DNA of 62,293 bases from the NCBI GenBank assembly GCA_046075565.1, contig JBJTQJ010000115.1, forward strand, positions 1 through 62,293, given 5' to 3'. The notes under the pieces are model-generated. The model was not told the DNA's origin. It saw nothing but the letters and a program-made list of their open reading frames with translations, and made no database searches. The stretch comes from Verrucomicrobiales bacterium (GTDB lineage Bacteria; Verrucomicrobiota; Verrucomicrobiia; Verrucomicrobiales; SLCJ01). Of the stretch, positions 1,169 through 24,526 are shown piece by piece (within the stretch, counting starts at the first letter, position 1; each line of letters begins with the position of its first letter). Made by a program: the position numbers and the translations under genes.

Positions 1169-2136
1169 TTCTTGCACCTCGCCCATTTTCCCGGCTGAAC
1201 CTTCGGCGAGGTTCGGCGCTACTGGCGACCCTGGCCGTGATCGCCGCACTTGCGCTCGTTGTCGCGCTGGTTTCCCGTGTGCTCCGGGAAGACCAAAGAT
1301 ATATCAAGGTCCGGCAAGAACGCCTCAATGCGCTCGCATGGGCTGAAGCAGGAGTCGCCATCGCCAGCCACCCGTTGATCAAGCGAGGAGACCCCACGCT
1401 CATCTGGGCCGGACCTGATGGTGAGGGCTACAAAGTGACCATCGAATCCGAAGATGCCCGCATCAATCCGGCGGTGGTGCTGCAACGCGAGGACGACATT
1501 TTCCTGGAGTCCCTCTTTGCCCTCTGGGGCATGGATCCGGATTCCTCGGCGGTGTTGATCGATTCCATGCGCGATTGGATCGATGATGATGACAGTGTCG
1601 GCCTCAACGGGGCCGAGGAGGGAGAATACGAGGGCTCGGGTATGCCCGGAGTTCCCCCGAACCGTCGCTTTCTTTCCGTAGAAGAAATCCGCCATGTCCG
1701 GGGGGCGCAGGCCCTCGATATGTTGCGTCCGGGCTGGGAATCGCTTTTCACCGTCCGCGGCTCGGGCGTGCTCGACCTCAAGGACGCCCCCGCCGAACTC
1801 ATCGCCGCTGCTTGCGGGGTCCCCATCGAGACGGCTCAACGTTTTGTGGAACTGAGACGGGGTCCGGACGGGATCCCCGACAACGACGACGATCCGCCCA
1901 TGACTTCGCTCAGCGACGCCCTCACCCTGCTCGGCCCGCCCGGCGTGTCCGAGGAAATCCTCAACAGCCGGGTCGGTGTGGGCTCGTCCACCCAACGCAT
2001 CACCAGTATTGGAAGCTTCGGAAAAACCTCCCGCACGCTGGCCGCCGTCATCCTCAAGGGCAATGCCCGCCCCGCCATGTTGTGGCGAGGCGAAGTGCCC
2101 AGTGTGCTGCCCGACGCCCCGAATCCCGGCGGCTGA
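1165..2136 (+). CDS. gspK: T2SS protein K (tip pseudopilin)
   Basis: RG|SALL N-terminus, AEAG, ESEDARIN, DWIDDDD Ca-binding motif, F.SVEEI..VRG. Confidence 0.88.
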   Translation: MILAPRPFSRLNLRRGSALLATLAVIAALALVVALVSRVLREDQRYIKVRQERLNALAWAEAGVAIASHPLIKRGDPTLIWAGPDGEGYKVTIESEDARINPAVVLQREDDIFLESLFALWGMDPDSSAVLIDSMRDWIDDDDSVGLNGAEEGEYEGSGMPGVPPNRRFLSVEEIRHVRGAQALDMLRPGWESLFTVRGSGVLDLKDAPAELIAAACGVPIETAQRFVELRRGPDGIPDNDDDPPMTSLSDALTLLGPPGVSEEILNSRVGVGSSTQRITSIGSFGKTSRTLAAVILKGNARPAMLWRGEVPSVLPDAPNPGG

Positions 2137-2193
2137 TTTGCCCGATGGACGAAACAGAAATCCGGTCCATAATATATCTTAATCAAGTCCCCT

Positions 2194-3435
2194 ATGTCAG
2201 AGAAACGCAGCGAAATCCTCATTTGCCCGTCCGCCGACGGTTGGACCCGATGGAAATCGGGAGAAGATGGCGTATGGGTCGCCGAGGAGTCCATCCCTGC
2301 CGAGTCTCCGGCTTGGGATGCAGCCTACCCCAAGCTCGCGTGGCAAATGGGCTTGCCCATGCGCGTGCTCCAGACCATGGCGCTGAAGATCTCTTCCTCC
2401 GACGAAACCACCACGGTGGATGACCTCGTCCCCCTCCGGCTGGAAGCGGCGGGCCTCTCTCTCGGGGAAGAAGGCGTCCGGCTCGCCGATTGGTCGGTCG
2501 CCGGCACCCGCAGCGATGCCAAGATCGTCACGGTCTGGTCCATGGAAGCGAACGCGCTTCTCGGTTGCCCCGGACCCCGCGTGCCCGCAAGCATCTGGCC
2601 GGCTTTTATGCGCTGGAAATGGCAAGCCCGCGAATTGGTTCTCTGGTGCGAAGCCGGCCGGTGGATTGCGGGTTTCTCCAGCGAGCATTGTCCGGTCCAT
2701 GCTCAACCCTGCCTTGGCACGGAGAATGTGCCACAGCTCGCCTCCGACCTCCGCGGCCAGGCTACCGCCTTGCTTCTTCGCGGTTTGACCGCCATGCCGG
2801 AACGCCTCGTCGTGCGCGGGACCTGCCCGCCTTTCGCCCGCGAACTCGCGACCGAACTTTCCCTGCCGCTGGTGGAAAAACCCGAAACCCCGGAGTTGCT
2901 CCCGGCGCAAGCCCGATTGATCGCCAGCGAGATGCAAACCGCCCGTGCCGCCGCCGTCGAGGCGCGCAAGTGGAGGCTGCGCATTATCGCTGCCGCCGCC
3001 CTCTGGGTGGCCGCCGCCATCTATGCCGGATTCGGTTATTTCCAGGCGAAAAGTGAGCTCGCCGATGCCGAAAAGCGCCACGAGGAGGTCACCCCGCGCG
3101 CCAAGGCCATGCGCGATGTACAAGTCCAACTCGACGATATCAAATCCGTCAATCTTCCCGACGCGTTGCCGGTAGATGTGCTCAACCGCATCGCCAAAAC
3201 CATGCCGCAAGGCGGAGGTTTCCGGCTCACCACTTTCACCGTCGAAGGTGACCGTGATGTTTATCTCAAGGGGAGTGCCGCCCGGGCCGATGTCGCGCTG
3301 CGCTTCGCCCAAGATTTGAAACGAAACAAAGACCTGACCGTTTACCAATGGGAAATTCCGCCACCCGTGCAGCAAAAAGACGGCCGGGCTGAATTCAGCT
3401 ACACGGGCAAATTCCGCGCCAATCTGAATCCATGA
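2194..3435 (+). CDS. T2SS assembly-platform protein, GspL/PilN-like
   Basis: Cytoplasmic N-domain, single TM at about aa 263-283, coiled coil, then PilN-like C-terminus; follows gspK. Confidence 0.65.
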   Translation: MSEKRSEILICPSADGWTRWKSGEDGVWVAEESIPAESPAWDAAYPKLAWQMGLPMRVLQTMALKISSSDETTTVDDLVPLRLEAAGLSLGEEGVRLADWSVAGTRSDAKIVTVWSMEANALLGCPGPRVPASIWPAFMRWKWQARELVLWCEAGRWIAGFSSEHCPVHAQPCLGTENVPQLASDLRGQATALLLRGLTAMPERLVVRGTCPPFARELATELSLPLVEKPETPELLPAQARLIASEMQTARAAAVEARKWRLRIIAAAALWVAAAIYAGFGYFQAKSELADAEKRHEEVTPRAKAMRDVQVQLDDIKSVNLPDALPVDVLNRIAKTMPQGGGFRLTTFTVEGDRDVYLKGSAARADVALRFAQDLKRNKDLTVYQWEIPPPVQQKDGRAEFSYTGKFRANLNP

Positions 3436-4597: not shown

Positions 4598-7138
4598 ATG
4601 ACCCGCGTTCTCTCCCGTCTGACCCTCGCCGCCGCCTTGGCCTGGCCCCTCGCCGGTTTCGCCCAGAATGCCAATCCAAACCCGCCGCCCGGTGTGCCCG
4701 CTCCGCCTCCTGGAGTGCCTGCTCCGAATCCCGGTGGACCCGGCCAACCGCCCGGCGCTGGCGGCGCTCGCCCCGGCGGCAATAACAATGCCATCGTGGA
4801 CGGTCCCATCGAGGCCCCGCCTCCGACTGATATGTTGTTGCGCACCGGCATGGCCATGCCAAACGCCAGCATCATCAAGGTGATCCTGCCGATTTACCAG
4901 CAGCTGACAGGGAAACGTGTGGTGCTCGATACCAACATCGCCGACAACAACGTGCGTGTTGTCGTCTCTGGTCCCATCACCAAGGATGACCTGATTGATT
5001 TCATTCTGCGAAGTTTGCAGATGAACGGGTTTGTCTTTGTCCCCACCAACCAGGTGAACACGGTCAAACTGATCAACGCGCTTGCCGGTCAACCGCTCCG
5101 CGCCCAAGGCGGTCTCGTCTATACCGACGCCGCCTCCCTACCCTTCACCGATACCGTCGTCACCTACGTGATGAAGCTCGAGTATATCAAGTCCGAAGAG
5201 GCCGCCCGGATTTTCCCGCAGATCATCCAGCCCAATAGCTACGGCTCCATCGCCGCCGTGGACAACGCCTCGGCGGTCATCATCACCGACGACGTCGCCA
5301 TCGTGCGACAACTGATCGAACTGGCCAAAGTTGTGGACGTGCCATCGGCTCAAGTCTCGACGAAGTGGTTCGAACTCGAACGCGCCGATGCGGAGAGAGC
5401 CGCCGAGTTCCTCGCCGAAGTGCTGGATACCGGCACGGATTCCACCCCCGCCCGCGCCATCCGCGCAGGTAGCGAGGCCCCCGCTCCCACAGGTGCCCCC
5501 GGTGCCCCTGGTGCTACTCCGGGAGCCGCTGGTGCTTCCGCCGGAACCAGCGAAGGCCCGAGCGTGAAGATCGTCGCCGACACCCGCCGCAATGCCATCC
5601 TTGCGGTGGCCCGTCCGCTCGACATGCAATACATCGAGAGCCTGATCAAGGAATACGATTCCCCGAGCAAGGTGAAAACCTTCCTCAAGCGCCCGCTCAA
5701 ATTCATCGTCGCGAGCGAACTGCTCACACCTTTGCAAAACGCTCTCGAGCGCGAGAACGCCGGTGAAGGCGGCAGCAGCGGCGGCGGCGCGGCCACCAGC
5801 GGAGGTGGAACATCCAGCCGCACCAACACCAATGCCACCTCGCGCGGCAGCGGGTTGGGATCAAGAAACTCAAGTTCGAATTCTTCTTTCGGAGGGGGCA
5901 GCAGTGGCTTCGGTGGCAGCAGCGGTTTCGGAGGCGGCGGATTCGGCGGTGGAGGTGGAGGCGGTTCCCTTCTGGAGGCAGGAGATGCCCCGCCTGCCGC
6001 GGAATCGGTGGTCATCGGGAAGACCTTGCTCGTTGCTGATAACGAACGTAACGCCATCATCGTTTCTGGACCACCGGAAAGCATCCGCCTTGTCGAGGAG
6101 ATCATCGACCAGCTCGACGAACGCCCGCGCCAGGTGCTGCTTTCCACGGTTATTGGCCAGATGTCCCTCGGTAACGACCGCGAATACGGTCTGAATATCT
6201 TGAAGTCGCTGAGCGAAGTGAACGCGAACGAGGATCTCCTTGGCGCGGGCTCGCTGGGGGCCGTCAATTTTCCTGGTCGAACGACCACGAGTCCGGGGAC
6301 CGGAAACACGCCAGGAACATCCACCACCAACTTGATCGAATTCGAGGACCTGCTCAATCCCTCGAATTTGCCGGCGCTGTCCGGATTGAACCTCTACGGG
6401 AAAATCGGAGATGACCTCCGGGTTTACCTGAAGCTGCTGGAAAACCAGAACAAGTTCCGTGTTCTCCAGCGTCCTGTCATCTTCACCGCCAACAACCGCC
6501 AGGCGGTGATTTCCAGCGGCCAGCGGATCGCCGTGCCGACCAACTCCTTCACCAGCGGAGCCACCGTGGGCGCGACCCAGAGCACGAACATCGATTACCG
6601 CGATGTCGTGCTTCGTCTCGAAGTGGTTCCCCTCATCAACTCGGAGAACGAAGTGACATTGCGCATCGCCCAGGTGAATGACAAGGTCGTGGGAACGCAA
6701 ACGATCGATGACAATGCCGTGCCGATCATCGGAACGGAGGAACTGGAAACCACGGTCACCGTGACCAACGGCCAGACCGTCGTGCTCGGCGGCCTCATCA
6801 CCGAACGCACCGAGAAGACCATCAACGGGGTTCCGATCCTCATCCAAATCCCGCTCATCAAACACCTCTTCGGCACGACCAAGGAAGTAAAGAATCGCGA
6901 GGAATTGATGATCTTCATCCAACCGAAGATTCTCGACACCAACGCCCAGATTCTGAGCGAAAACGTCAGCGAAGTGAAGCGCGTGCCCCGCGGTGAAGAG
7001 ATCGTGGAATTTGCCGTTCCCGAATACCCGGAGATCAAAGCACAAGCCGAGGCGGCGGAGGCTGCCGCCCAAGGCAAACCGGTGCGCAAACGCCCTTCCG
7101 GCGGCCTGTTCCAGAAGATGAGGCTCTTCCCAGAGTGA
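4598..7138 (+). CDS. gspD: T2SS secretin GspD
   Basis: Signal peptide, repeated N-domains (ADTRRNAI, ADNERNAIIV), QLDERPRQV, secretin core (LGGLI, GVPIL.IPLI.LF, ELMIFIQPKI). Confidence 0.93.
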   Translation: MTRVLSRLTLAAALAWPLAGFAQNANPNPPPGVPAPPPGVPAPNPGGPGQPPGAGGARPGGNNNAIVDGPIEAPPPTDMLLRTGMAMPNASIIKVILPIYQQLTGKRVVLDTNIADNNVRVVVSGPITKDDLIDFILRSLQMNGFVFVPTNQVNTVKLINALAGQPLRAQGGLVYTDAASLPFTDTVVTYVMKLEYIKSEEAARIFPQIIQPNSYGSIAAVDNASAVIITDDVAIVRQLIELAKVVDVPSAQVSTKWFELERADAERAAEFLAEVLDTGTDSTPARAIRAGSEAPAPTGAPGAPGATPGAAGASAGTSEGPSVKIVADTRRNAILAVARPLDMQYIESLIKEYDSPSKVKTFLKRPLKFIVASELLTPLQNALERENAGEGGSSGGGAATSGGGTSSRTNTNATSRGSGLGSRNSSSNSSFGGGSSGFGGSSGFGGGGFGGGGGGGSLLEAGDAPPAAESVVIGKTLLVADNERNAIIVSGPPESIRLVEEIIDQLDERPRQVLLSTVIGQMSLGNDREYGLNILKSLSEVNANEDLLGAGSLGAVNFPGRTTTSPGTGNTPGTSTTNLIEFEDLLNPSNLPALSGLNLYGKIGDDLRVYLKLLENQNKFRVLQRPVIFTANNRQAVISSGQRIAVPTNSFTSGATVGATQSTNIDYRDVVLRLEVVPLINSENEVTLRIAQVNDKVVGTQTIDDNAVPIIGTEELETTVTVTNGQTVVLGGLITERTEKTINGVPILIQIPLIKHLFGTTKEVKNREELMIFIQPKILDTNAQILSENVSEVKRVPRGEEIVEFAVPEYPEIKAQAEAAEAAAQGKPVRKRPSGGLFQKMRLFPE

Positions 7139-7778: not shown

Positions 7779-7907
7779 CCGCCCACAGCATACACCCCCT
7801 GAGGCCAATGGACAAGTTCCTCCCTTGATTGGTAAAATCCAAGGAATGGAGATCCGTTCATAGGTCATACCGCTTGCGGCCGTGTCAATTCCCGCTTTTC
7901 TTGGACC

Positions 7908-8222
7908 ATGCCACGAGTCGCTTTCACCATGCGCCTGTTTCCGGGCCACGAGGAAGAATACGAACGCCGCCACCGTCCGATCTGGCCGGAACTGGCGGGC
8001 GTGCTGCGTGCCCACGGAGTCGAGGATTACGCGATCTATCTCGACGACTCGACGGGCACACTCTTCGGGCACGCTGTCGTGCGTTCCCTCGAGGATTGGG
8101 ATTCCATCGCAAAAGAAGAAGTTTGCCAACGCTGGTGGCAATACATGAAGCCGTTGATGGAAAGCCGCGAGGACGGAAGCCCGGTCGCCACCACGCTGCG
8201 CGAAGTATTTTGCCTGGAATAA
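7908..8222 (+). CDS. rhaM: L-rhamnose mutarotase
   Basis: RVAFTMRLFPG.EEEYERRH.IWPEL, CQRWW.YM, LREVF.L family motifs; 104 aa. Confidence 0.92.
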   Translation: MPRVAFTMRLFPGHEEEYERRHRPIWPELAGVLRAHGVEDYAIYLDDSTGTLFGHAVVRSLEDWDSIAKEEVCQRWWQYMKPLMESREDGSPVATTLREVFCLE

Positions 8223-8229
8223 ACCCGCC

Positions 8230-10194
8230 ATGGAAATCCGCGAGTTCGCCGAGCGTGTGCTCTTTGCCAATACCCTGGCGGACAAACTCGCGCCTCCGGC
8301 GGATCGATTGACCGACCTTGTGCCCGGGCAAGCCATCGGGTCCCCTGCCCTGCCGGGGCGTCCGGATTCATTACTGCCACGCCGCCGGGGCGAACCTCGC
8401 GTGCCATTTCCCGGCGAGGCGAAATTGATCGACGAGAAGTCCCGGGCGCGTCTATTGCACTTTTTTTGCAATCATGAATTGCTGGCCGTCGAATTGATGG
8501 CACTGGCCCTCCTGAAATTTCCGGATGCTCCGAAGGCCTTCCGCCGCGGTATCGCCCGCACCCTACAGGAAGAACAGGAACACACCCGCTGGTATATGCA
8601 CCGCATGGGCGATTGCGGATTGAACTTCGGCGACCTTCCGGTCTCGGGTATGATCTGGAATCATATCGCGGGCATGGAAAGCCCGCTCGACTTCGTCTCC
8701 CGATTGTCACTCACCTTCGAACAATCGAACCTCGATTACGCCCGCCATTTCGGCAACGTGCTCGCGACCGCCGGAGACGCCGAAAGCGCCGACATCCTCC
8801 AGCGCATCTACCGGGATGAAATCGCCCATGTCGGACACGGCCTCAAATGGCTGCGGCGATGGAAGCAAGACAAGGAATCCGATTGGGAAGCCTTCCGACG
8901 CGGACTGAAGTTTCCCCTTTCGCCAGTGCGGGCCAAAGGACTGGTCCCCTTCAATGCGGAAGGCCGCCGACTTGCCGGGTTGGATGACGATTTTATCTCG
9001 CGCCTGCGCGGCTTCGAACAGTCGCGGGGGCGCACGCCGGATGTGCGGTTTTTCCACCCCGCCGCGGAGGACGAATGGGCCGTGCATCGCATGGGCAAAC
9101 CATGGCATCCACGCAAGACGATGGAGGAGGTGTCCGCCGACCTGGAAATAGGATTCGCGCTGGCCATTCCCCGCGATGATGTCTTGCTCGCCCGGCGGAT
9201 GCCAACGGTTGAGCACCGCCTCCTGCTCGAGTCGGCCGGACTGTTTCTTCCGGAAATGTTGCCGATGGACGACGCGGCGGATCATCTGGGAGGACGCCGC
9301 TTGCACGCGCCGCGCCCGTGGGCATGGAGTCCATCGGTTGAAAATCTCCTCGATGCCTTGCCCGGTCCGTGGTCTGCCTCGCCACCCCGCACCGATCCGA
9401 TCTGGTTCGACAAGACCTTCGCCGCGTCCTTGGCAACCTCTCTGGAAAAGGAATGGCAATGCCCGGAAACACGAAACACGACCTCCGCCGACGAAGCAGT
9501 CGCGGAGGCGCAAAGGTTGCTAGCAGCCGGGTGGCCACGTGTGGTGGCGAAGGCGTCGTTAGGACTCGCCGGACGCGGGCATTTCCATTTCGCGGAAAAT
9601 ACGCCAGCTCCGCATTTGCCAGATGGGGCGTATCTCGTCGAACCCTGGCTGCCGCGTTGTTTCGACTTCTCGGCTCACTATGATGTGACCGATGGCAAAG
9701 CCCGTTGGGTCGGTCTGGCTCGCCAGTCGATTGATGCCCGGGGTCGTTGGCGCGCCTCGGCCACCGGACCGAAGTGGCTAAAGGGACTTTCACCCGATGT
9801 CGCATCCTTCGCCGACCTGCTTCTGCCCCGCGTTTACAATGGCCCGGTGCGGGAGATGCTCGATTATGCCCTCGCCCGCCACCCCCATGATGGCCCGCTG
9901 GGCGTGGACGCCTTCGTCTGGCAACTTCCCGGCGAAGCACCCCGTCTGCATGCCGTGGTGGAAATCAATCCCCGCTGGACCATGGGGCGCCTCACCATTT
10001 CCCTTTCCAAAAAGTCCCGACACCCCGGATGGACGACCCTCAGTCTGGTGGCCAAAGACAAAGCCCGTGACCTGCCATTGCCGGAAATCCGAGATGGCCA
10101 ATTGCGTTCAGGAAGCCTCCCGTTGACCGACCCCACAAACGCCTCCGGGCATCTACTGGTGCTGACCGTAGGTGCCGGGCCGGCTTTCGGGTGA
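8230..10194 (+). CDS. Ferritin-like (DUF455) di-iron domain fused to an ATP-grasp domain
   Basis: NHELLAVE, EEQEH, LTFEQSNLD, DEIAHVGHG ligand motifs; C-terminal VAKASLGLAGRG, LVEPW, GPLGVD, VVEINPR. Confidence 0.8.
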   Translation: MEIREFAERVLFANTLADKLAPPADRLTDLVPGQAIGSPALPGRPDSLLPRRRGEPRVPFPGEAKLIDEKSRARLLHFFCNHELLAVELMALALLKFPDAPKAFRRGIARTLQEEQEHTRWYMHRMGDCGLNFGDLPVSGMIWNHIAGMESPLDFVSRLSLTFEQSNLDYARHFGNVLATAGDAESADILQRIYRDEIAHVGHGLKWLRRWKQDKESDWEAFRRGLKFPLSPVRAKGLVPFNAEGRRLAGLDDDFISRLRGFEQSRGRTPDVRFFHPAAEDEWAVHRMGKPWHPRKTMEEVSADLEIGFALAIPRDDVLLARRMPTVEHRLLLESAGLFLPEMLPMDDAADHLGGRRLHAPRPWAWSPSVENLLDALPGPWSASPPRTDPIWFDKTFAASLATSLEKEWQCPETRNTTSADEAVAEAQRLLAAGWPRVVAKASLGLAGRGHFHFAENTPAPHLPDGAYLVEPWLPRCFDFSAHYDVTDGKARWVGLARQSIDARGRWRASATGPKWLKGLSPDVASFADLLLPRVYNGPVREMLDYALARHPHDGPLGVDAFVWQLPGEAPRLHAVVEINPRWTMGRLTISLSKKSRHPGWTTLSLVAKDKARDLPLPEIRDGQLRSGSLPLTDPTNASGHLLVLTVGAGPAFG

Positions 10195-10292: not shown

Positions 10293-10321
10293 TTGGCAAT
10301 TTCCGCCCTTCTCCCTATGCT
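10293..10321 (+). promoter_or_regulatory. Putative sigma70 promoter for proBA (TTGGCA-N17-TATGCT)
   Basis: Consensus-like hexamers at 17-bp spacing, 32 bp before the proB ATG. Confidence 0.5.
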
Positions 10322-10353: not shown

Positions 10354-11127
10354 ATGAACAGGGAAAAACGCATCGTCATCAAAATCGGCACCGGGGTTCT
10401 GACCCGTCAGGACGGGATCCGCCTGGACGAGCCGGTCTTCGTGGATCTGGCCCGGGCCATTTCCGCCCTCCATGCCGATGGCTGGCACGCGGTGGTGGTT
10501 TCCAGCGGAGCCGTGGGGGCCGGGTTGATGGAATTCGGGCGCAACAAACGCCCGACCGAAACCGCCGAATTGCAGGCATTCGCCGCCATCGGGCAGGCCC
10601 GCCTGATGCAGACCTGGCGCACCCATTTGCAGGTCCGCGACCTCGCGGGAGCCCAATTGCTCCTCACTTACGACGATCTGGAATCCACGGACCGCCGCGA
10701 GCGCATCACCCGCACGCTCGACCACCTCCTTTCGATGGGAAATGTCATCCCGATCATCAATGAAAACGACAGCGTCGCCGTGGAGGAACTCCGCTTCGGC
10801 GACAACGACGCCCTCTCCGCACGGGTGGCTGGAATTGCCGGTGCCCACCTGCTTGTTCTCCTGACTTCAGTGGACGGGCTGATGGACGGGGATGGAAAGA
10901 TCATTCCCGTGGTGCCGGATATCGCCGCGTCGATGTCCCATGTGCGCGGTGACAAGGGGACTCTCTCGGTCGGCGGCATGGCCACCAAACTCCAAGCCAC
11001 CGCCCACGCCGTGGAAACCGGGATTCCCGTGATCATCGCCAATGGTAAAGAAGCCCACCGGTTGCCCGGCATCGTGGCCGGCACGGATCCCCTTTGCACC
11101 CGTTTTCCCTTGCCCAGACATGCCTGA
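10354..11127 (+). CDS. proB: Glutamate 5-kinase (no PUA domain)
   Basis: VIKIGT, SSGAV, AAIGQ, INEND, FGDND, GGM.TK motifs. Confidence 0.95.
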   Translation: MNREKRIVIKIGTGVLTRQDGIRLDEPVFVDLARAISALHADGWHAVVVSSGAVGAGLMEFGRNKRPTETAELQAFAAIGQARLMQTWRTHLQVRDLAGAQLLLTYDDLESTDRRERITRTLDHLLSMGNVIPIINENDSVAVEELRFGDNDALSARVAGIAGAHLLVLLTSVDGLMDGDGKIIPVVPDIAASMSHVRGDKGTLSVGGMATKLQATAHAVETGIPVIIANGKEAHRLPGIVAGTDPLCTRFPLPRHA

Positions 11128-12394
11128 GGATATCCCAGCCGCCATACGTTCCATGGCCGAGGCCGCCCGTGTGGCCTCGCGTGGTCTTGCCAACCTCGGC
11201 ACGGACGAAAAGAACCGCATCCTGATCGCCATCGCCGATGGCCTTGAGGCACGCGCGTTGGAAATCCTCGCCGCCAACCAACTCGACCTCGAGGCGGGAG
11301 AAAAAGCCGGACTCGCCCCCGCGATGATGGACCGTCTCCGCCTAACAAAAGAACGTATTTCCGCCAGTGCGAAAGACGTGCGCCATGTCGCGGGTCTGCC
11401 GGACCCGGTGGGAAAGGCGCTCGATGAATTCAACGGTGCCCAAGGCATTCTCATCCGCAAAGTCTCGGTGCCCATCGGCGTGATCGCGATTCTTTTCGAG
11501 AGCCGCCCGAATGTCACCATCGACGCGGCGGCGCTTTGTCTGAAAAGCGGCAACGCAACCATTCTACGCGGCGGCAAGGAGGCCCTGCATTCCAACCTCG
11601 CCCTCGCACGCGTGCTCCAGGAGAGCGGTCAAACGGCCGGACTTCCCGCCAATGCCGTGCAACTCGTGCCTTTCACCGACCGTTCGAGCGTGCCCGCTCT
11701 GGTCGGGCTCGACGGACTCATCGACCTGGCGATTCCGCGCGGAGGCCACGGCCTTATCGAAGCGGTGGTCAGTCATGCCCGCGTGCCGGTGATCAAACAC
11801 TATGATGGGATCTGCCATCTGTATCTCGACTCCGCCGCCGATGCCGGGATGGCCGCAGCCATTGCAGTGAATGCGAAGTGCCAGCGCCCGGGGGTTTGCA
11901 ACGCGGCGGAGTCCCTGCTCATCCACGCCGATGCGGCGGAGCGCCTCTTGCCCGTGGTCGGTCGTGCCCTCCTGGAAAATGGTGTGGAGTTGCGCGGAGA
12001 TGCAGACTCGCTCGCACTGCTTGAAAGCTGCGGAATCAATGCCGTCGCGGCGAAAGAAGAGGATTTCCGCACGGAATTCCTCGCGCTCATCATGGCCGTG
12101 AAGATCGTTCCATCCCTCGAAGAAGCGATTGCTCACATCAACAGCCATGGCTCCCACCACAGCGATGCCATCATCACCGGAGATGAAACCGCCGCCCGGC
12201 GCTTCCTCGCAGAGGTTGATTCGGCGGCCGTCTACTGGAATGCCTCGACACGCTTCACCGACGGCGGACAATTTGGATTCGGGGCCGAGATCGGCATCTC
12301 AACCGACAAACTCCATGCCCGCGGCCCCATGGGCCTGCCCGAACTGACTTCCTACAAATACCTTGTCACCGGCAATGGCCAAACCCGCGCTTAA
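11120..12394 (+). CDS. proA: Gamma-glutamyl phosphate reductase
   Basis: FESRPNVT, RGGKEA, IPRGG, GVCNAAE, NASTRFTDGGQFG, HARGPMGL. Confidence 0.96.
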   Translation: MPEDIPAAIRSMAEAARVASRGLANLGTDEKNRILIAIADGLEARALEILAANQLDLEAGEKAGLAPAMMDRLRLTKERISASAKDVRHVAGLPDPVGKALDEFNGAQGILIRKVSVPIGVIAILFESRPNVTIDAAALCLKSGNATILRGGKEALHSNLALARVLQESGQTAGLPANAVQLVPFTDRSSVPALVGLDGLIDLAIPRGGHGLIEAVVSHARVPVIKHYDGICHLYLDSAADAGMAAAIAVNAKCQRPGVCNAAESLLIHADAAERLLPVVGRALLENGVELRGDADSLALLESCGINAVAAKEEDFRTEFLALIMAVKIVPSLEEAIAHINSHGSHHSDAIITGDETAARRFLAEVDSAAVYWNASTRFTDGGQFGFGAEIGISTDKLHARGPMGLPELTSYKYLVTGNGQTRA

Positions 12395-12404
12395 ATCCCA
12401 TTTC

Positions 12405-13580
12405 ATGACCACCTCCCTCAAATCCATCAACCTTGTTGAAACGCTCCACAATATCGAGGAGATCGCGCAGAACTTTGGCATCGAAGGGGAATTAGTCGAA
12501 GGCGGTGCCTTCGGCAATGGTCTGATCAACGACACCCTCGCAGGCACGTTCGAGCGCGACGGCAAACGCCGACGCTACGTTTTCCAGCGGATCAACCACC
12601 ACGTCTTCAAGAATCCCATCGGGCTGATGGAAAACGTGGAGCGCGTTTGTGGACATGTCCGGTCCCGGCTTGAAACAGATGGAGTGGATCAACTGGACCG
12701 CCGCTGCCTCACGCTATTGAACACGCTTTCCAACGGCCCACTGCTGCACATTCCACTCAAGGATGAATACTGGCGTTGTTACCGCTACATCAACCACTGC
12801 ACGAGTTACGATGTGGTTAGCACGGAGGAACAAGCCTTCGAGGCGGCGCAGAAATTCGGGGAATTCCAGAAGCTCGTGGCGGACTTGCCCGGACCGCGTC
12901 TGACCGAAACCATTCCTGATTTCCATAACACCCCCAAGCGGTTCTCCGCTTTCGAGGCGGCCATCCAATCGGATCCTCTAGGACGGGCCAAGCACTGCCG
13001 GGCGGAAATCGAATTCGCGCTTTCGCGTCACGGGGTGGCGAAGCACCTGCTCGAACTGCACGCGCGCGGGGAAATGCCGGAACGCATCACCCACAACGAC
13101 ACGAAACTCAGCAACGTCCTCATCTGCGACATGACGGGCTCCGGCATGTGTGTCGTGGATTTGGATACCGTCATGCCGGGACTCTCGCTATACGACTTCG
13201 GCGACATGGTCCGCACCTGTGTGAGCCCCGGAGAGGAAGACACAAACGATCTGTCGACCATCCATGTCCGCATGCCTATGTTCGAAGCATTGGCCCGGGG
13301 CTTCATCAAGCAACTGGGAGGATTGCTGACGCCTGCGGAAAAGGCCAATCTCGCCTTCGCCGGAAAGCTGCTCACGTTCGAGGTCGGAATCCGTTTCCTC
13401 ACCGATTATCTTCTCGGTGACGTCTATTTTTCGACCAAACGCCCCGGTCACAATCTGGATCGCTGCCGCACCCAATTCCATCTCGTGCGTTCGATTGAAG
13501 CTTGTGAAGCCGATATGAACCGCTTCGTCGAGTCCTTGACCGGAGCCTGCGATGCCTCGCTGCGGTTTCGGGTCGATTGA
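12405..13580 (+). CDS. APH/phosphotransferase-fold kinase (N-acetylhexosamine 1-kinase-like)
   Basis: GNGLINDT, QRINH, THNDTKLSN, DLDTVMPG, YDFGDMVR. Confidence 0.85.
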   Translation: MTTSLKSINLVETLHNIEEIAQNFGIEGELVEGGAFGNGLINDTLAGTFERDGKRRRYVFQRINHHVFKNPIGLMENVERVCGHVRSRLETDGVDQLDRRCLTLLNTLSNGPLLHIPLKDEYWRCYRYINHCTSYDVVSTEEQAFEAAQKFGEFQKLVADLPGPRLTETIPDFHNTPKRFSAFEAAIQSDPLGRAKHCRAEIEFALSRHGVAKHLLELHARGEMPERITHNDTKLSNVLICDMTGSGMCVVDLDTVMPGLSLYDFGDMVRTCVSPGEEDTNDLSTIHVRMPMFEALARGFIKQLGGLLTPAEKANLAFAGKLLTFEVGIRFLTDYLLGDVYFSTKRPGHNLDRCRTQFHLVRSIEACEADMNRFVESLTGACDASLRFRVD

Positions 13581-21894: not shown

Positions 21895-23559
21895 TCAAAC
21901 GGCCACGGCGGCAGCCCGGATTTCCCGGCGTTTCCTGAACCAGACGACCAGAGCGTAAAGAGAAACCACTGCTTGGACGCTGAGACCACCGAAAAAAGCG
22001 ACATGGCCGTGAACCCCGGCCTCCGCCCATTGGGCATCGGTGGCGGTCATGGCACAAAACGGGGCCGACAAAGGGGAAAGGGCACCGAGGTAAAACCCGA
22101 TGCTCGCTCCTTGGTCGGAGGCGGCACCAAGCACGAGCATGACGAGCGCTGGCACGACCCAGAATCCCATGAGAACCGCAAATGTGCCCTTTTTTTCCCA
22201 TGCTTCGGTCGCGGCAACCACGGCGGTGAAGGCAAAAACCGGAAGCAAGGCGACCCACGGGACCATCTCGAGGGCGAACATTTTCCCTTCCAGCCAACGA
22301 CTGACGCCAAGCTCATGGCCGAAAATCCAAACGGCCGCCCCCGCCGCCAGACCAAAGACGGCGGCCCATGGAAGTGCGCTGGCCTCGTCGGCCCGCCACG
22401 GAAGACGACTTCGCCCTAGCCGAACCGAGCGCCGCCAGCCCCGGATCGCTTCGGCGCGCGTTGGTAGGATTTGGAGCAGGAGAAACACCCCTAGCAAAAG
22501 CAGAACCATGCTCAACAATCCGACAAGCATTCCCGCTTCCGCCGCCGAGGACTTCGGCACAAGCGAACGAAGAAGCACCCGGGTAAATCCGGGCCCGGAG
22601 GACTTCATCAAAGTGCTGGGAAAGACGCGGCCGTCCTGAATGAGCGGTAGCAGGTTGCCTAGAACGACCGCCGCGGTCCCGGCAAGCACCCCAAGCGCGG
22701 TGCCTTTCCCGATCGCATGGCGGCCGCCATCGATCCATTTCCTCCGGATCATGGAAAGGAACACCAGAATCAACGCACCCTGGATGGTCAGGGAAAAAAC
22801 AAACTGCGGCAACTCGAGCCCGTAGAAAGCGACTTCTGTTTTTTCATCGCGGGGAAGCTGGGGCGCGAAACTCTGGCGCAAGGGCAAGGAAAGTTGTTCG
22901 CGGAAAACCGGCCGGACCGTGAGATGCTCGAAGACAATGTATCCGAAATTCGAGAGCTGCGGCAGAGCGAGATAGAGCACGATCACGGCAGCTTGGACAA
23001 TACGCGCGCCGAAGCGGCGGGCACGGATGACAAACCCCGCGCAGTATCCGGTCAGATGGTAGAGCAAAGCCGAAGTGAAGAGCACGGCATAAACTTTGAG
23101 CAAAGACTCGATGGGCAACTTCCCCATCCATAAGCCGATCAAAGTGAAGGGTAGCGTGAGTGCGAAAAGAACATACTCGCGCACCGGCAAGCCGAAAAGA
23201 TAACCAACCATCTTCCATGCGGGTGGCAACGGGGTAAGCCGCTGGAATTCGATCATCCCCTCCTCTTCCTCTTGCAAAAGCGATGCAGTGACGGCTCCCG
23301 TTCCGGTGAGGAGGAGCAAAATCCCTTGGAAGACGAGAATCGGAATGAAGGCCGCCCGGGCGGCCGTGACGCTATCCTTGCCAATGCGGTTCTCCACCGC
23401 GTTGTAAACGGTTAGAAACAGAAAGGTTGCCAGCACGACCGTGACAATCGCCCATGGCACGAACACCCGCGCCCGCATGCGCGAGCGCCAACAACGGACG
23501 ACAATCGGATTGCGCCAAAGTGCCCACAGTGGCGGCGGAAAAGCCGGATGGTCAGACAT
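21895..23559 (-). CDS. ABC transporter permease (large multi-TM, ABC-2-like)
   Basis: NPIVVR N-terminus, about 12 TM segments, E.EEGM..F.RLTP; translationally coupled to an ABC ATPase. Confidence 0.75.
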   Translation of the reverse strand: MSDHPAFPPPLWALWRNPIVVRCWRSRMRARVFVPWAIVTVVLATFLFLTVYNAVENRIGKDSVTAARAAFIPILVFQGILLLLTGTGAVTASLLQEEEEGMIEFQRLTPLPPAWKMVGYLFGLPVREYVLFALTLPFTLIGLWMGKLPIESLLKVYAVLFTSALLYHLTGYCAGFVIRARRFGARIVQAAVIVLYLALPQLSNFGYIVFEHLTVRPVFREQLSLPLRQSFAPQLPRDEKTEVAFYGLELPQFVFSLTIQGALILVFLSMIRRKWIDGGRHAIGKGTALGVLAGTAAVVLGNLLPLIQDGRVFPSTLMKSSGPGFTRVLLRSLVPKSSAAEAGMLVGLLSMVLLLLGVFLLLQILPTRAEAIRGWRRSVRLGRSRLPWRADEASALPWAAVFGLAAGAAVWIFGHELGVSRWLEGKMFALEMVPWVALLPVFAFTAVVAATEAWEKKGTFAVLMGFWVVPALVMLVLGAASDQGASIGFYLGALSPLSAPFCAMTATDAQWAEAGVHGHVAFFGGLSVQAVVSLYALVVWFRKRREIRAAAVAV

Positions 23560-24526
23560 GGTCGCCCTCCTCTCCCCGGGTTGACTTCAACCCGAGCACG
23601 GCCCGCTCGAGGGCGGAACCAGCCTCGGAGAGTTGCCGGACCGGCACTCCCTCGAGGACCAAGCCGCGGAGGAAATCCGCCTCGTCCGCTGGCGATCCAT
23701 GAAAAAGGAAAAACACCCGGTCCCCATCGGCTTCGATACTGTCAGCGAGCGAACTCGCCGACAGCGCTTCGGCGAGACGCGGACCATGACCAGCCGGAGC
23801 AAGCGCGACAAAACGCCGGCTGCCTTGAGCCGCGCGATCGGCCACGTCGTGCACTGGACCGCTGTCCACCAGCCTGCCGTGTTGCATCAATCCGATGGTC
23901 GAGCACATGTCGGAGAGTTCGCCGAGAATATGGGAACTGATCACGACTGTGCTCCCGTGCCGCGCGAGCTTTTTCACGGTGGCCTTGAGCGCGGAACGCG
24001 AGACCGGGTCCATTCCGCTGGCGGGCTCGTCGAGCACAAAAACGCGGGGCATGTGCAACAGCGTTTTCGCAAGCACGAGCCGTTGTTTCATCCCGCGGGA
24101 TAGTTCGTTGCACAAAACATCGCGCTTCTCCACCAGCCGCACCTCCTCCAGACATTCCTGGCAACGCTCGCGGCGGTTGGTGACGATACCGTGCGACGCG
24201 GCGAAGATATCAAGGAATTCCCAAACCTTGAGATCGGAAGGCACGGGCGCGAGATCGGGCATATAGCCGAGCGCCGCACGTGCGGCTGCGGCAGCATCGG
24301 TGGTGTGATGACCGGCAATGCTCACGCGCCCGTAGGTCGGCTCCAACAAGGTTGCAAGCACACGGAAAGTGCTCGTCTTGCCTGCGCCATTCGGGCCCAC
24401 CAGCCCGAAAACCTCCCCGAATGGGATACGCAGGCAAAGGCCGTCCACGGCGACGGTCTCGCCATAATCGACGCGGAGATCGTCGATTTCGATGGCGGGC
24501 ACGTCCATGGCCGGGGATTCAATCAT
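23552..24526 (-). CDS. ABC transporter ATP-binding protein
   Basis: GPNGAGKTS Walker A, LSRGMKQR signature, VLDEP Walker B, SSH. Confidence 0.93.
   Translation of the reverse strand: MIESPAMDVPAIEIDDLRVDYGETVAVDGLCLRIPFGEVFGLVGPNGAGKTSTFRVLATLLEPTYGRVSIAGHHTTDAAAAARAALGYMPDLAPVPSDLKVWEFLDIFAASHGIVTNRRERCQECLEEVRLVEKRDVLCNELSRGMKQRLVLAKTLLHMPRVFVLDEPASGMDPVSRSALKATVKKLARHGSTVVISSHILGELSDMCSTIGLMQHGRLVDSGPVHDVADRAAQGSRRFVALAPAGHGPRLAEALSASSLADSIEADGDRVFFLFHGSPADEADFLRGLVLEGVPVRQLSEAGSALERAVLGLKSTRGEEGDHV

Follow-up and report, generated by a model that had tools for sequence, protein, structure and literature searches.

A DUF455 ferritin-like domain fused to an ATP-grasp ligase module in Verrucomicrobiota: a candidate bifunctional enzyme acting on amino acids or peptides

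Ferritin-like di-iron enzymes such as MiaE and AurF carry out O2-dependent hydroxylation or N-oxygenation, and ATP-grasp enzymes form amide bonds. Among ATP-grasp ligases of solved structure, PGM1 (3wvq) and the protein of entry 8ynd presumably take peptides as the nucleophile, PGM1 and BesA we take to come from natural-product pathways, and the product of BesA is reportedly a gamma-glutamyl dipeptide that is then hydroxylated. LdmS (SAOUHSC_02373) joins two free L-amino acids, L-Asp and L-Met, and is paired with a separate gene in the hmrA/ldmS operon, not with a di-iron protein (PMC9486568). The nearest functional precedent for the gene considered here is provided by the heme-oxygenase-like di-iron oxidases (HDOs), which are often encoded beside ATP-grasp amino-acid ligases, with 1447 such sequences spread over at least 25 cluster types that include mangotoxin, and which, as with mangotoxin MboA and its partners MboC/MboD, pair an O2-activating di-iron enzyme with ligases on amino-acid-derived molecules (PMC13185094). 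HDO systems use another di-iron fold and consist of separate proteins encoded in biosynthetic clusters, whereas the gene described here encodes both domains in one polypeptide outside any cluster. It lies on contig JBJTQJ010000115.1 of a Verrucomicrobiales bacterium (assembly GCA_046075565.1), in the 62,293-nt stretch that we analysed as a whole and call the window, and it joins an N-terminal DUF455 ferritin-like domain (the N-half) to a C-terminal ATP-grasp carboxylate-amine ligase module (the C-half). The reading we favour, with a probability of about 0.5, is a bifunctional small-molecule enzyme in which a ligase of the PGM1/BesA/LdmS branch works with a di-iron domain that activates O2 to tailor the molecule which the ligase handles.

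A first-pass annotation, made from the letters of the DNA alone, had described the protein as a DUF455 domain and a complete-looking ATP-grasp ligase in one chain, and this description is borne out for both halves. Residues 50-256 match PF04305 (DUF455) at E = 1.2e-45 and 156.5 bits, against a gathering cut-off of 34.3, over profile positions 37-246 of 247, and the search of the organism's own genome scored the domain at 159.6 bits. The full-length AlphaFold2 prediction is a single confident two-domain model (predicted local distance difference test score, pLDDT, 94.0; predicted template modelling score, pTM, 0.87). Its long helices span residues 69-96, 102-128, 152-180 and 184-211, and putative di-iron ligands are found on all four: E88, or else E83, on helix A, where our choice is a tentative one, followed by E115xxH118, E164 and E197xxH200. 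To judge by these residues, the helix set carries the classical di-iron carboxylate pattern E/ExxH/E/ExxH, and the four helices together with their conserved ligands are those expected of a ferritin-like di-iron carboxylate protein.

All the motifs quoted in that annotation are located in the 654-residue translation, in the order it gave (Table 1), and the start methionine of the open reading frame coincides in alignment with the start of full-length relatives. In 42 aligned full-length relatives (41-83% identity) the motif residues of both halves are invariant or at least 90% present. A search with the C-half gave 959 matches at E<=0.001, from which the best 150 representatives of 50%-identity clusters were taken; 109 of these are at least 600 residues long, share 30-50% identity with the query and provide the counts that follow. 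In the di-iron set, E88 is present in 108 of 109, and E115, H118, E164, E197 and H200 in all 109. Polar residues near the putative di-iron site are retained to the same degree (H77, H82 and E83 in 108, N81 in 107, Q116 and D169 in 109), as is the ATP-grasp set: K395 in 105, K441 in 108, E471 in 102, E578 in 107, and D560, N580 and R582 in all 109. Conservation of these motifs is far beyond chance, and both halves look catalytically competent.

The C-half was modelled separately, as residues 260-654, on the 42-sequence alignment (mean pLDDT 94.7, pTM 0.92), and the model folds as a complete three-domain ATP-grasp with N, central and C domains. Foldseek against the PDB returned at least 500 matches at E<=0.001, and all among the matches listed are ATP-grasp enzymes, led by 8ynd ('ATP-grasp peptide ligase from Streptomyces', E 4e-16) and followed by 3wvr/3wvq, BesA 8yi6, LdmS 7r8q/7r8p, and then PurK, PylC and biotin carboxylases. 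In VIA-align, residues 266-654 gave Z values from 27.2 down to 13 against many ATP-grasp families. With residues 268-654, PGM1 3wvq scored Z 27.2 (344 residues aligned, root-mean-square deviation, rmsd, 3.4), 8ynd 25.4, BesA 8yi6 23.4 and LdmS 7r8p 22.1, and PurD, PurK and PurT scored 16.6-18.1; the first four, all of them amino-acid or peptide ligases, stand 4-9 Z units above PurD and PurK (Z ~17-18). PGM1 (3wvq/3wvr) and 8ynd share with the C-half the three-domain layout, N-domain included, and the ExNxR-type motif, at Foldseek E values of 4e-16 to 2.5e-13, but identity is only 14-17%, both are stand-alone proteins with no fused metal domain, and their substrates are unlikely to be common to the fusion. 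The L-amino-acid ligases BesA and LdmS, at 11-15% identity, are likewise without a ferritin-like domain. The C-half resembles PGM1-like peptide ligases in structure and is not a member of their sequence family.

Sequence comparison points to a divergent ATP-grasp branch. A search of PDB sequences with the fusion protein gave no match, and neither phmmer nor the 42-sequence profile found 3wvq or 8ynd at E<=10; the profile gave weak PDB matches to DcsG (E 0.063) and to LdmS 7r8p (E 0.27 over 78 positions) and no others. The homologue P0123 has a weak PreAtp-grasp match (PF18604, E 2.6e-4, below the cut-off), and an Atlas feature search returned an LdmS_N cluster at 0.92, which is a lead only. 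By likeness to known ATP-grasp enzymes, we take K395 and K441 to be the two nucleotide-binding lysines, E471 the hinge glutamate, and D560 with the Glu-x-Asn-x-Arg of E578, N580 and R582 the remaining catalytic set; these presumed roles rest on that likeness and not on a superposition.

The fusion is not peculiar to this contig. A word-indexed protein search scored 8000 candidates, of which 2948 reached E<=0.001; among the best 120, every protein has 607-732 residues. These match at 90-100% coverage and 41-87% identity, and come from Luteolibacter, Haloferula, Sulfuriroseicoccus, Akkermansiaceae, Chthoniobacteraceae and other Verrucomicrobiota, under names that, where present, say only 'DUF455 family protein' or 'ferritin-like domain-containing protein'. 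In contigs from one genome per species, at least 588 stretches, out of the 600 pattern-matched ones scored, encode relatives, and each of the best 80 loci of that set contains the two-domain gene, complete or truncated at a contig end; most C-half matches start near residue 260 of 610-740-residue proteins. An artefactual fusion, by misassembly or read-through, was considered and rejected, as the architecture recurs in hundreds of independent assemblies. Match names point to relatives in Myxococcota, Methylomirabilota and Acidobacteriota, on names only and mostly from partial entries. Larger fusions of 1146-3270 residues were looked for and none was found, which is weak evidence. The first-pass annotation knew of no characterised enzyme with this architecture, and literature searches, which missed most subscription journals, found none and no known function for the fusion; searches by name for the function of DUF455 found it mentioned only as an unknown domain in the papers examined, and PF04305 was not found in text.

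Within the phylum, 401 genomes of at least 90% completeness were evenly sampled. A strong DUF455 match within an open frame of 648-743 residues was found in 18 of the 401, G000 among these 18, with the C-half matched in the same genomes, and the fusion is absent from one genus (0/28) and from two families (0/55 and 0/27). Its distribution is patchy rather than universal, and at the same time vertically widespread in several orders of one phylum. The same sample contains a second, weaker class of DUF455-like match (E ~1e-12 to 1e-14, profile positions ~70-228, open frames of 445-590 residues; genomes G060, G117, G144, G156, G177, G180, G213, G234, G237, G252, G282, G291, G366 and others), often in 2-3 copies per genome and centred on one family of the phylum (13/35 genomes), which represents an architecture other than the fusion.

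Each of the two modules also occurs alone. Stand-alone DUF455 proteins of ~270 residues, from Sinorhizobium, Ralstonia, Sphingomonas and others, align over 81-98% of residues 1-259 at 29-34% identity and have the same conserved helices as the N-half, but they lack the ligase module and their gene context differs from that of the fusion. In a plasmid collection, 12 proteobacterial replicon records carry a DUF455 gene at 28-34% identity to residues 1-259; the C-half is found in none of the 12, and has no match in that collection. Conversely, a metagenome scan seeded with nine apparently stand-alone ligase sequences returned 80 loci, of which 65 carry DUF455 immediately 5' in the same frame or break off inside it, 6 reach a contig end too early for a call, and 8 lack the bundle, with a stop upstream of the ligase part and no DUF455 in the locus. 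At the one remaining locus, L152:1325-3403, a DUF455 part (1325-2095) and an ATP-grasp part (2096-3403) are contiguous and in different frames, so that the gene is split or the sequence contains a frameshift or an assembly error.

The N-terminal helix of the fusion ('MELRDxAEPVLFATTLDxKL...'), in which A7, L11 and K19 are invariant in the 42 sequences and which the model renders as helices 3-12 and 16-20, stands directly before the ligase part in L128, L143, L158, P0172 and P0222. Because this helix is kept in the bundle-less forms, it belongs with the ligase module, and the ferritin bundle appears to behave as an excisable insert. A FastTree of the ligase part (125 rows, 108 fused and 17 bundle-less) needs 8 changes between the fused and bundle-less states, at least 7 of them forced by branches with Shimodaira-Hasegawa-like support of 95 or more; the tree is quick and unrooted, many of its long branches are flagged, and some bundle-less rows are only predicted proteins. 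Since fused forms are in the large majority, repeated loss of the bundle is the simplest reading, with the number of losses approximate. The neighbours of bundle-less genes are varied: a divergent creatininase-family gene and PhzF at L084, Amidohydro_3 upstream on the same strand at L103, VIT1 at L128, a rhodanese at L141, and at L143 a radical SAM gene, start overlapping the stop. Amide-cleaving genes of the creatininase or Amidohydro_3 type were not found at L128/L130, L141 or L143; with 2 of 6 distinct loci, the cases are too few to speak for or against a link between such genes and the bundle-less ligases. Repeated loss of the bundle, with the ligase still in place, makes the ligase look like the central part of the unit, to which the di-iron domain would add a coupled tailoring step.

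On the bifunctional reading, a general pathway can be outlined. The ligase half (residues 268-654) would turn the carboxylate of an amino acid, or of some similar acid, into an acyl-phosphate, with ATP and Mg bound by K395, K441, E471, D560, E578 and N580 and the intermediate stabilised by R582, and the activated carboxylate would then be joined to the amine of a second amino acid or short peptide. The iron half (residues 50-256) would hold two irons and use O2 and an external reductant to oxidise the substrate or product of the ligase, most likely by hydroxylation. The identity of the metal, the use of O2, the type of oxidation, the order of the steps, the action of both halves on one molecule and the substrate are all parts that we infer. 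The restriction of the fusion in the phylum sample fits an O2-dependent function, since COX1 (haem-copper oxidase subunit I) is matched in 18 of 18 fusion genomes and in 122 of the 383 others (cross-tabulated by hand), but this co-occurrence is one among related genomes and does not amount to an independent statistical test.

Other observations, too, weigh against the bifunctional reading. No Pfam or NCBIfam model matches residues 257-654 at E<=1, so the C-half fits no curated ATP-grasp model in these sets. In structure, the N-half comes closest to iron-storage or Dps-like proteins and not to oxygenases, at Z values of 13-15 that are barely above helical-bundle chance. No reductase or ferredoxin is fused or consistently adjacent. 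Around the best 80 related genome loci, in which all flanking open reading frames were clustered and from which the neighbour counts below are drawn, there is no conserved neighbour, the commonest flank gene occurring at 11 loci of which 10 belong to one syntenic clade, and no neighbour gives a clue to the substrate. Finally, the ligase is found without the bundle (8 of 80 metagenome loci; 8 state changes) and DUF455 without the ligase, from which it follows that each module can work without the other in cis. The first-pass annotation had proposed a one-protein machine that oxidises and ligates; both of its domains are there, and, because the modules are also found separately, the coupling of the two reactions on one molecule is a step that we infer.

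The structural neighbours of the N-half bring in a different possibility, namely that DUF455 deals with peroxide, iron or redox state much as rubrerythrin, Dps or bacterioferritin do, sensing or detoxifying an oxidant and gating or protecting the ligase, which might itself make a protective or repair-related conjugate under oxidative stress. In VIA-align, residues 64-221(263) align best with the Dps-like PA4880 (8w1d; Z 15.2, rmsd 1.8, 141 aligned), then with MJ0754 (3q4o) and a mini-bacterioferritin (both Z 14.6), and several further Dps and bacterioferritin chains are among the top matches. The chains resembling aldehyde-deformylating oxygenase (ADO) reach Z 12.8-14.3 with 172-187 residues aligned (5ux2, at Z 14.3 with 186 aligned, 6d9f, 8fhc and 5uwz) and toluene monooxygenase 1t0q reaches 14.1; storage-type ferritins and Dps score as high as these ADO-like chains or above them. 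Because helical bundles reach Z ~13 through their common arrangement alone, the ferritin-like assignment rests on the DUF455 hidden Markov model and the ligand pattern as much as on Z values. With the ferritin-like di-iron oxygenases the N-half shares the four-helix bundle and its E/ExxH/E/ExxH pattern, without membership of their sequence families: the Pfam scan found no MiaE, AurF or ADO family match at E<=1, listing besides DUF455 the EncFtn-like family alone, and the NCBIfam scan of the N-half listed the encapsulin-ferritin model alone. These encapsulin-ferritin matches, on residues 178-217, are weak (TIGR04535, E 1e-4; PF22277, E 0.0015) and lean towards the redox role.

The neighbours of stand-alone DUF455 genes lean the same way. 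At 5 of the 9 loci opened, all five in alpha-proteobacteria and in several orders, a peroxiredoxin gene lies directly 5' of DUF455 on the same strand, the two genes overlapping by 4 nt in Sphingomonas; a peroxiredoxin was not found next to DUF455 in two Ralstonia loci, Azospirillum or Geobacillus. The pair looks like a conserved one in alpha-proteobacteria and is a lead towards oxidant handling. For the fusion itself, the restriction to COX1-bearing genomes would suit a redox role, and the methionine sulfoxide reductase gene msrA (MsrA) adjoins it in 11 of the 80 loci. Ten of these share an M29-MsrA-fusion synteny in marine Akkermansiaceae-like assemblies, with L057 arranged differently, so that the 11 cases reduce to about two independent arrangements; the M29 peptidase (9/80) comes almost entirely from that same single clade. 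The surroundings of the fusion, both in the window and at 160 related loci, contain no peroxiredoxin. Dps proteins and ferritins form cages, whereas the DUF455 domain is buried in the two-domain monomer model, and the invariant polar residues H77, N81, H82, E83, Q116, Q165 and D169 would, in our view, better fit a substrate pocket than a ferroxidase site. On balance we regard a redox role, the leading alternative, as rather unlikely.

A second alternative takes the enzyme to be a modifier of macromolecules in the style of RimK or EpmA, attaching an amino acid either to a protein, at a terminus or on a side chain, or to a group linked to nucleic acid. The di-iron domain would then hydroxylate the modified site in the manner of MiaE or EpmC. 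A lone gene without conserved metabolic neighbours is typical of modification enzymes, and the two closest structural relatives, PGM1 3wvq and 8ynd, are titled 'ATP grasp protein' and 'peptide ligase' in the hit list. A DeaD-type DEAD-box RNA helicase gene is adjacent on either side in 6 of the 80 loci, and in S. meliloti a DEAD/DEAH helicase is encoded two genes 3' of the stand-alone DUF455 gene, but at 6/80 this link is weak. A core translation-factor or ribosome modifier would be expected to be spread more widely than 18 of 401 phylum genomes, chains of the LysX/RimK type rank far lower in structure (LysX/ArgX 5k2m, Z 12.8), and no RimK, MiaE or tRNA-related family matches at E<=1. The tRNA link entertained in the first-pass annotation, which cited MiaE and AurF as ferritin-like precedents, finds no family match to support it, and we consider modification of a macromolecule unlikely.

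Gene context bears on a third alternative, in which the fusion tailors a small peptide natural product within a secondary-metabolite cluster, as the HDO and ATP-grasp pairs do. The closest solved relatives, PGM1, BesA and 8ynd, would suit such a role, and pairings of a di-iron oxidase with ATP-grasp enzymes are common in such clusters (PMC13185094). Against this, no conserved cluster is found in the 80 genome loci or in the window, where the neighbours (rhaM, proBA, ribosomal protein L25 and type II secretion genes) are housekeeping ones, and the gene is vertically inherited across several orders of one phylum; a natural-product role seems to us quite improbable. An ArsR helix-turn-helix/SAM-methyltransferase gene directly adjoins the fusion on the same strand, on either side, in 7 of the 80 loci, and no recurring neighbour is strong enough to name a pathway. 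The first-pass annotation had also drawn attention to rhaM upstream and proBA downstream. That arrangement is real here, with gaps of 7 nt and 159 nt, and incidental elsewhere; gene context as a functional clue was rejected, with rhaM at 0, proB at 2 and an APH-like kinase at 1 (L044) of the 80 loci. Within this genome, the promoter-like sites before rhaM (Table 1) and before proB (10293-10321, by consensus scan), together with the lack of any terminator-like site between rhaM and the fusion in a scan of the window, suggest that the fusion is probably co-transcribed with rhaM, from the upstream site as candidate promoter.

Returning to the bifunctional enzyme acting on a small molecule, we would propose only tentatively that aerobic Verrucomicrobiota use it to make a metabolite not described before, an amino-acid conjugate formed by ligation and subsequent hydroxylation or N-oxygenation, or by these steps in reverse order, such as a hydroxylated dipeptide or a hydroxamate-type amide. 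If so, this would be the first reaction for DUF455, a family with stand-alone members in proteobacteria and eukaryotes, and the adjacent peroxiredoxin and MsrA genes would suggest a function in dealing with oxidants. If both halves do act on one molecule, the fusion would be the ferritin-fold counterpart of the HDO and ATP-grasp pairings that have recently yielded new amino-acid chemistry.

Regardless of the specific reaction, the fusion of DUF455, a widespread ferritin-like family without a known reaction, to an understood class of ligase restricts the search to carboxylates and amines of amino acids or peptides. It does so in a single protein that can be expressed and screened, and hence offers a practical route to a first DUF455 function, while the natural bundle-less variants are ready-made controls for the contribution of each half. 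In our sample it is confined to oxygen-respiring members of a poorly studied phylum. Four points we believe to be new here: only COX1-bearing genomes of the sample carry the fusion, the N-terminal helix persists where the bundle is missing, the changes of state can be counted on a tree, and peroxiredoxin and DUF455 genes form a pair in alpha-proteobacteria. When the protein was split at residue 262/263 and the halves were submitted to complex prediction, the score was 0.00, without controls, which speaks neither for nor against domain contact.

Table 1. Coordinates and residues of the fusion gene, its neighbours in the window and the related loci
Feature	Location	Strand	Remarks
Whole gene, DUF455/ATP-grasp fusion	8230..10194	+	ATG start; 654 residues; stop codon included; open reading frame list
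N-terminal helix, residues 1-25 (MEIREFAERVLFANTLADKL...)	8230..8304	+	Conserved; retained in relatives without the ferritin bundle
DUF455 ferritin-like four-helix bundle, residues 50-256	8377..8997	+	PF04305; own-genome search match 8350-8997
ATP-grasp carboxylate-amine ligase module, residues 268-654	9031..10191	+	N-, central and C-domain; AlphaFold2 and Foldseek
N-half motifs	N81-H82-E83...E88; E114-E115-Q116-E117-H118; F163-E164-Q165; D196-E197-I-A-H200		From the translation
C-half motifs	K441...G445-L-A-G448-R-G450; V470-E471-P-W473; G558-V-D560; E578-I-N580-P-R582		From the translation
Key C-half residues	K395, K441, E471, D560, E578, N580, R582		Putative ATP/Mg/catalytic set
Promoter-like site 5' of rhaM	7809..7838	+	TGGACA-18-TAAAAT; 10/12 consensus matches; TG extension; pattern match only
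rhaM (L-rhamnose mutarotase)	7908..8222	+	TIGR02625, E 1.2e-38
proB	10354..11127		After a 159-nt gap 3' of the fusion; then proA
Bundle-less loci	L082, L084, L103, L128, L130, L141, L143, L158		Metagenome scan
Bundle-less loci with the N-terminal helix	L128:4999-6513; L143:1795-3258; L158:591-2018		As if the bundle were cleanly excised
Peroxiredoxin-DUF455 pair	L162:4435-5747, L164:4426-5702, L167, L168, L169 among loci		Sinorhizobium, Shinella, Pseudorhodobacter, Tistrella, Sphingomonas

Several features of the window and of the genome sample stand apart from the fusion. Downstream of it, in the proBA stretch 10354-12394, proB is short, its 257 residues covering positions 1-244 of the 363-position model TIGR01027 without the C-terminal part. 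The longest proA frame, from 11042, overlaps the end of proB by 86 nt, so that the true proA start probably lies further downstream. An APH-type phosphotransferase-family gene of 405 residues (12363-13580; PF01636, E 4.6e-10) in turn overlaps the end of proA by 32 nt. The type II secretion genes upstream of the fusion include a gene resembling that for the type II secretion system K protein (1165-2136) and a secretin of 846 residues (4598-7138), the latter with a long low-complexity insert, rich in Gly, Ser and Pro, that separates its N domains from its secretin domain. The AT skew is 0.258 in the 2-kb bin 22001-24000 and 0.12 or less in every other bin. Among the COX1 matches of the phylum sample, those at G070:C3:14026-15366 and G391:C232:3038-4378 contain 10 and 14 in-frame TGA codons, respectively, which suggests that these contigs come from an organism or organelle in which TGA is a sense codon, or are contaminants; in G070 there is a second COX1 copy, free of in-frame TGA.

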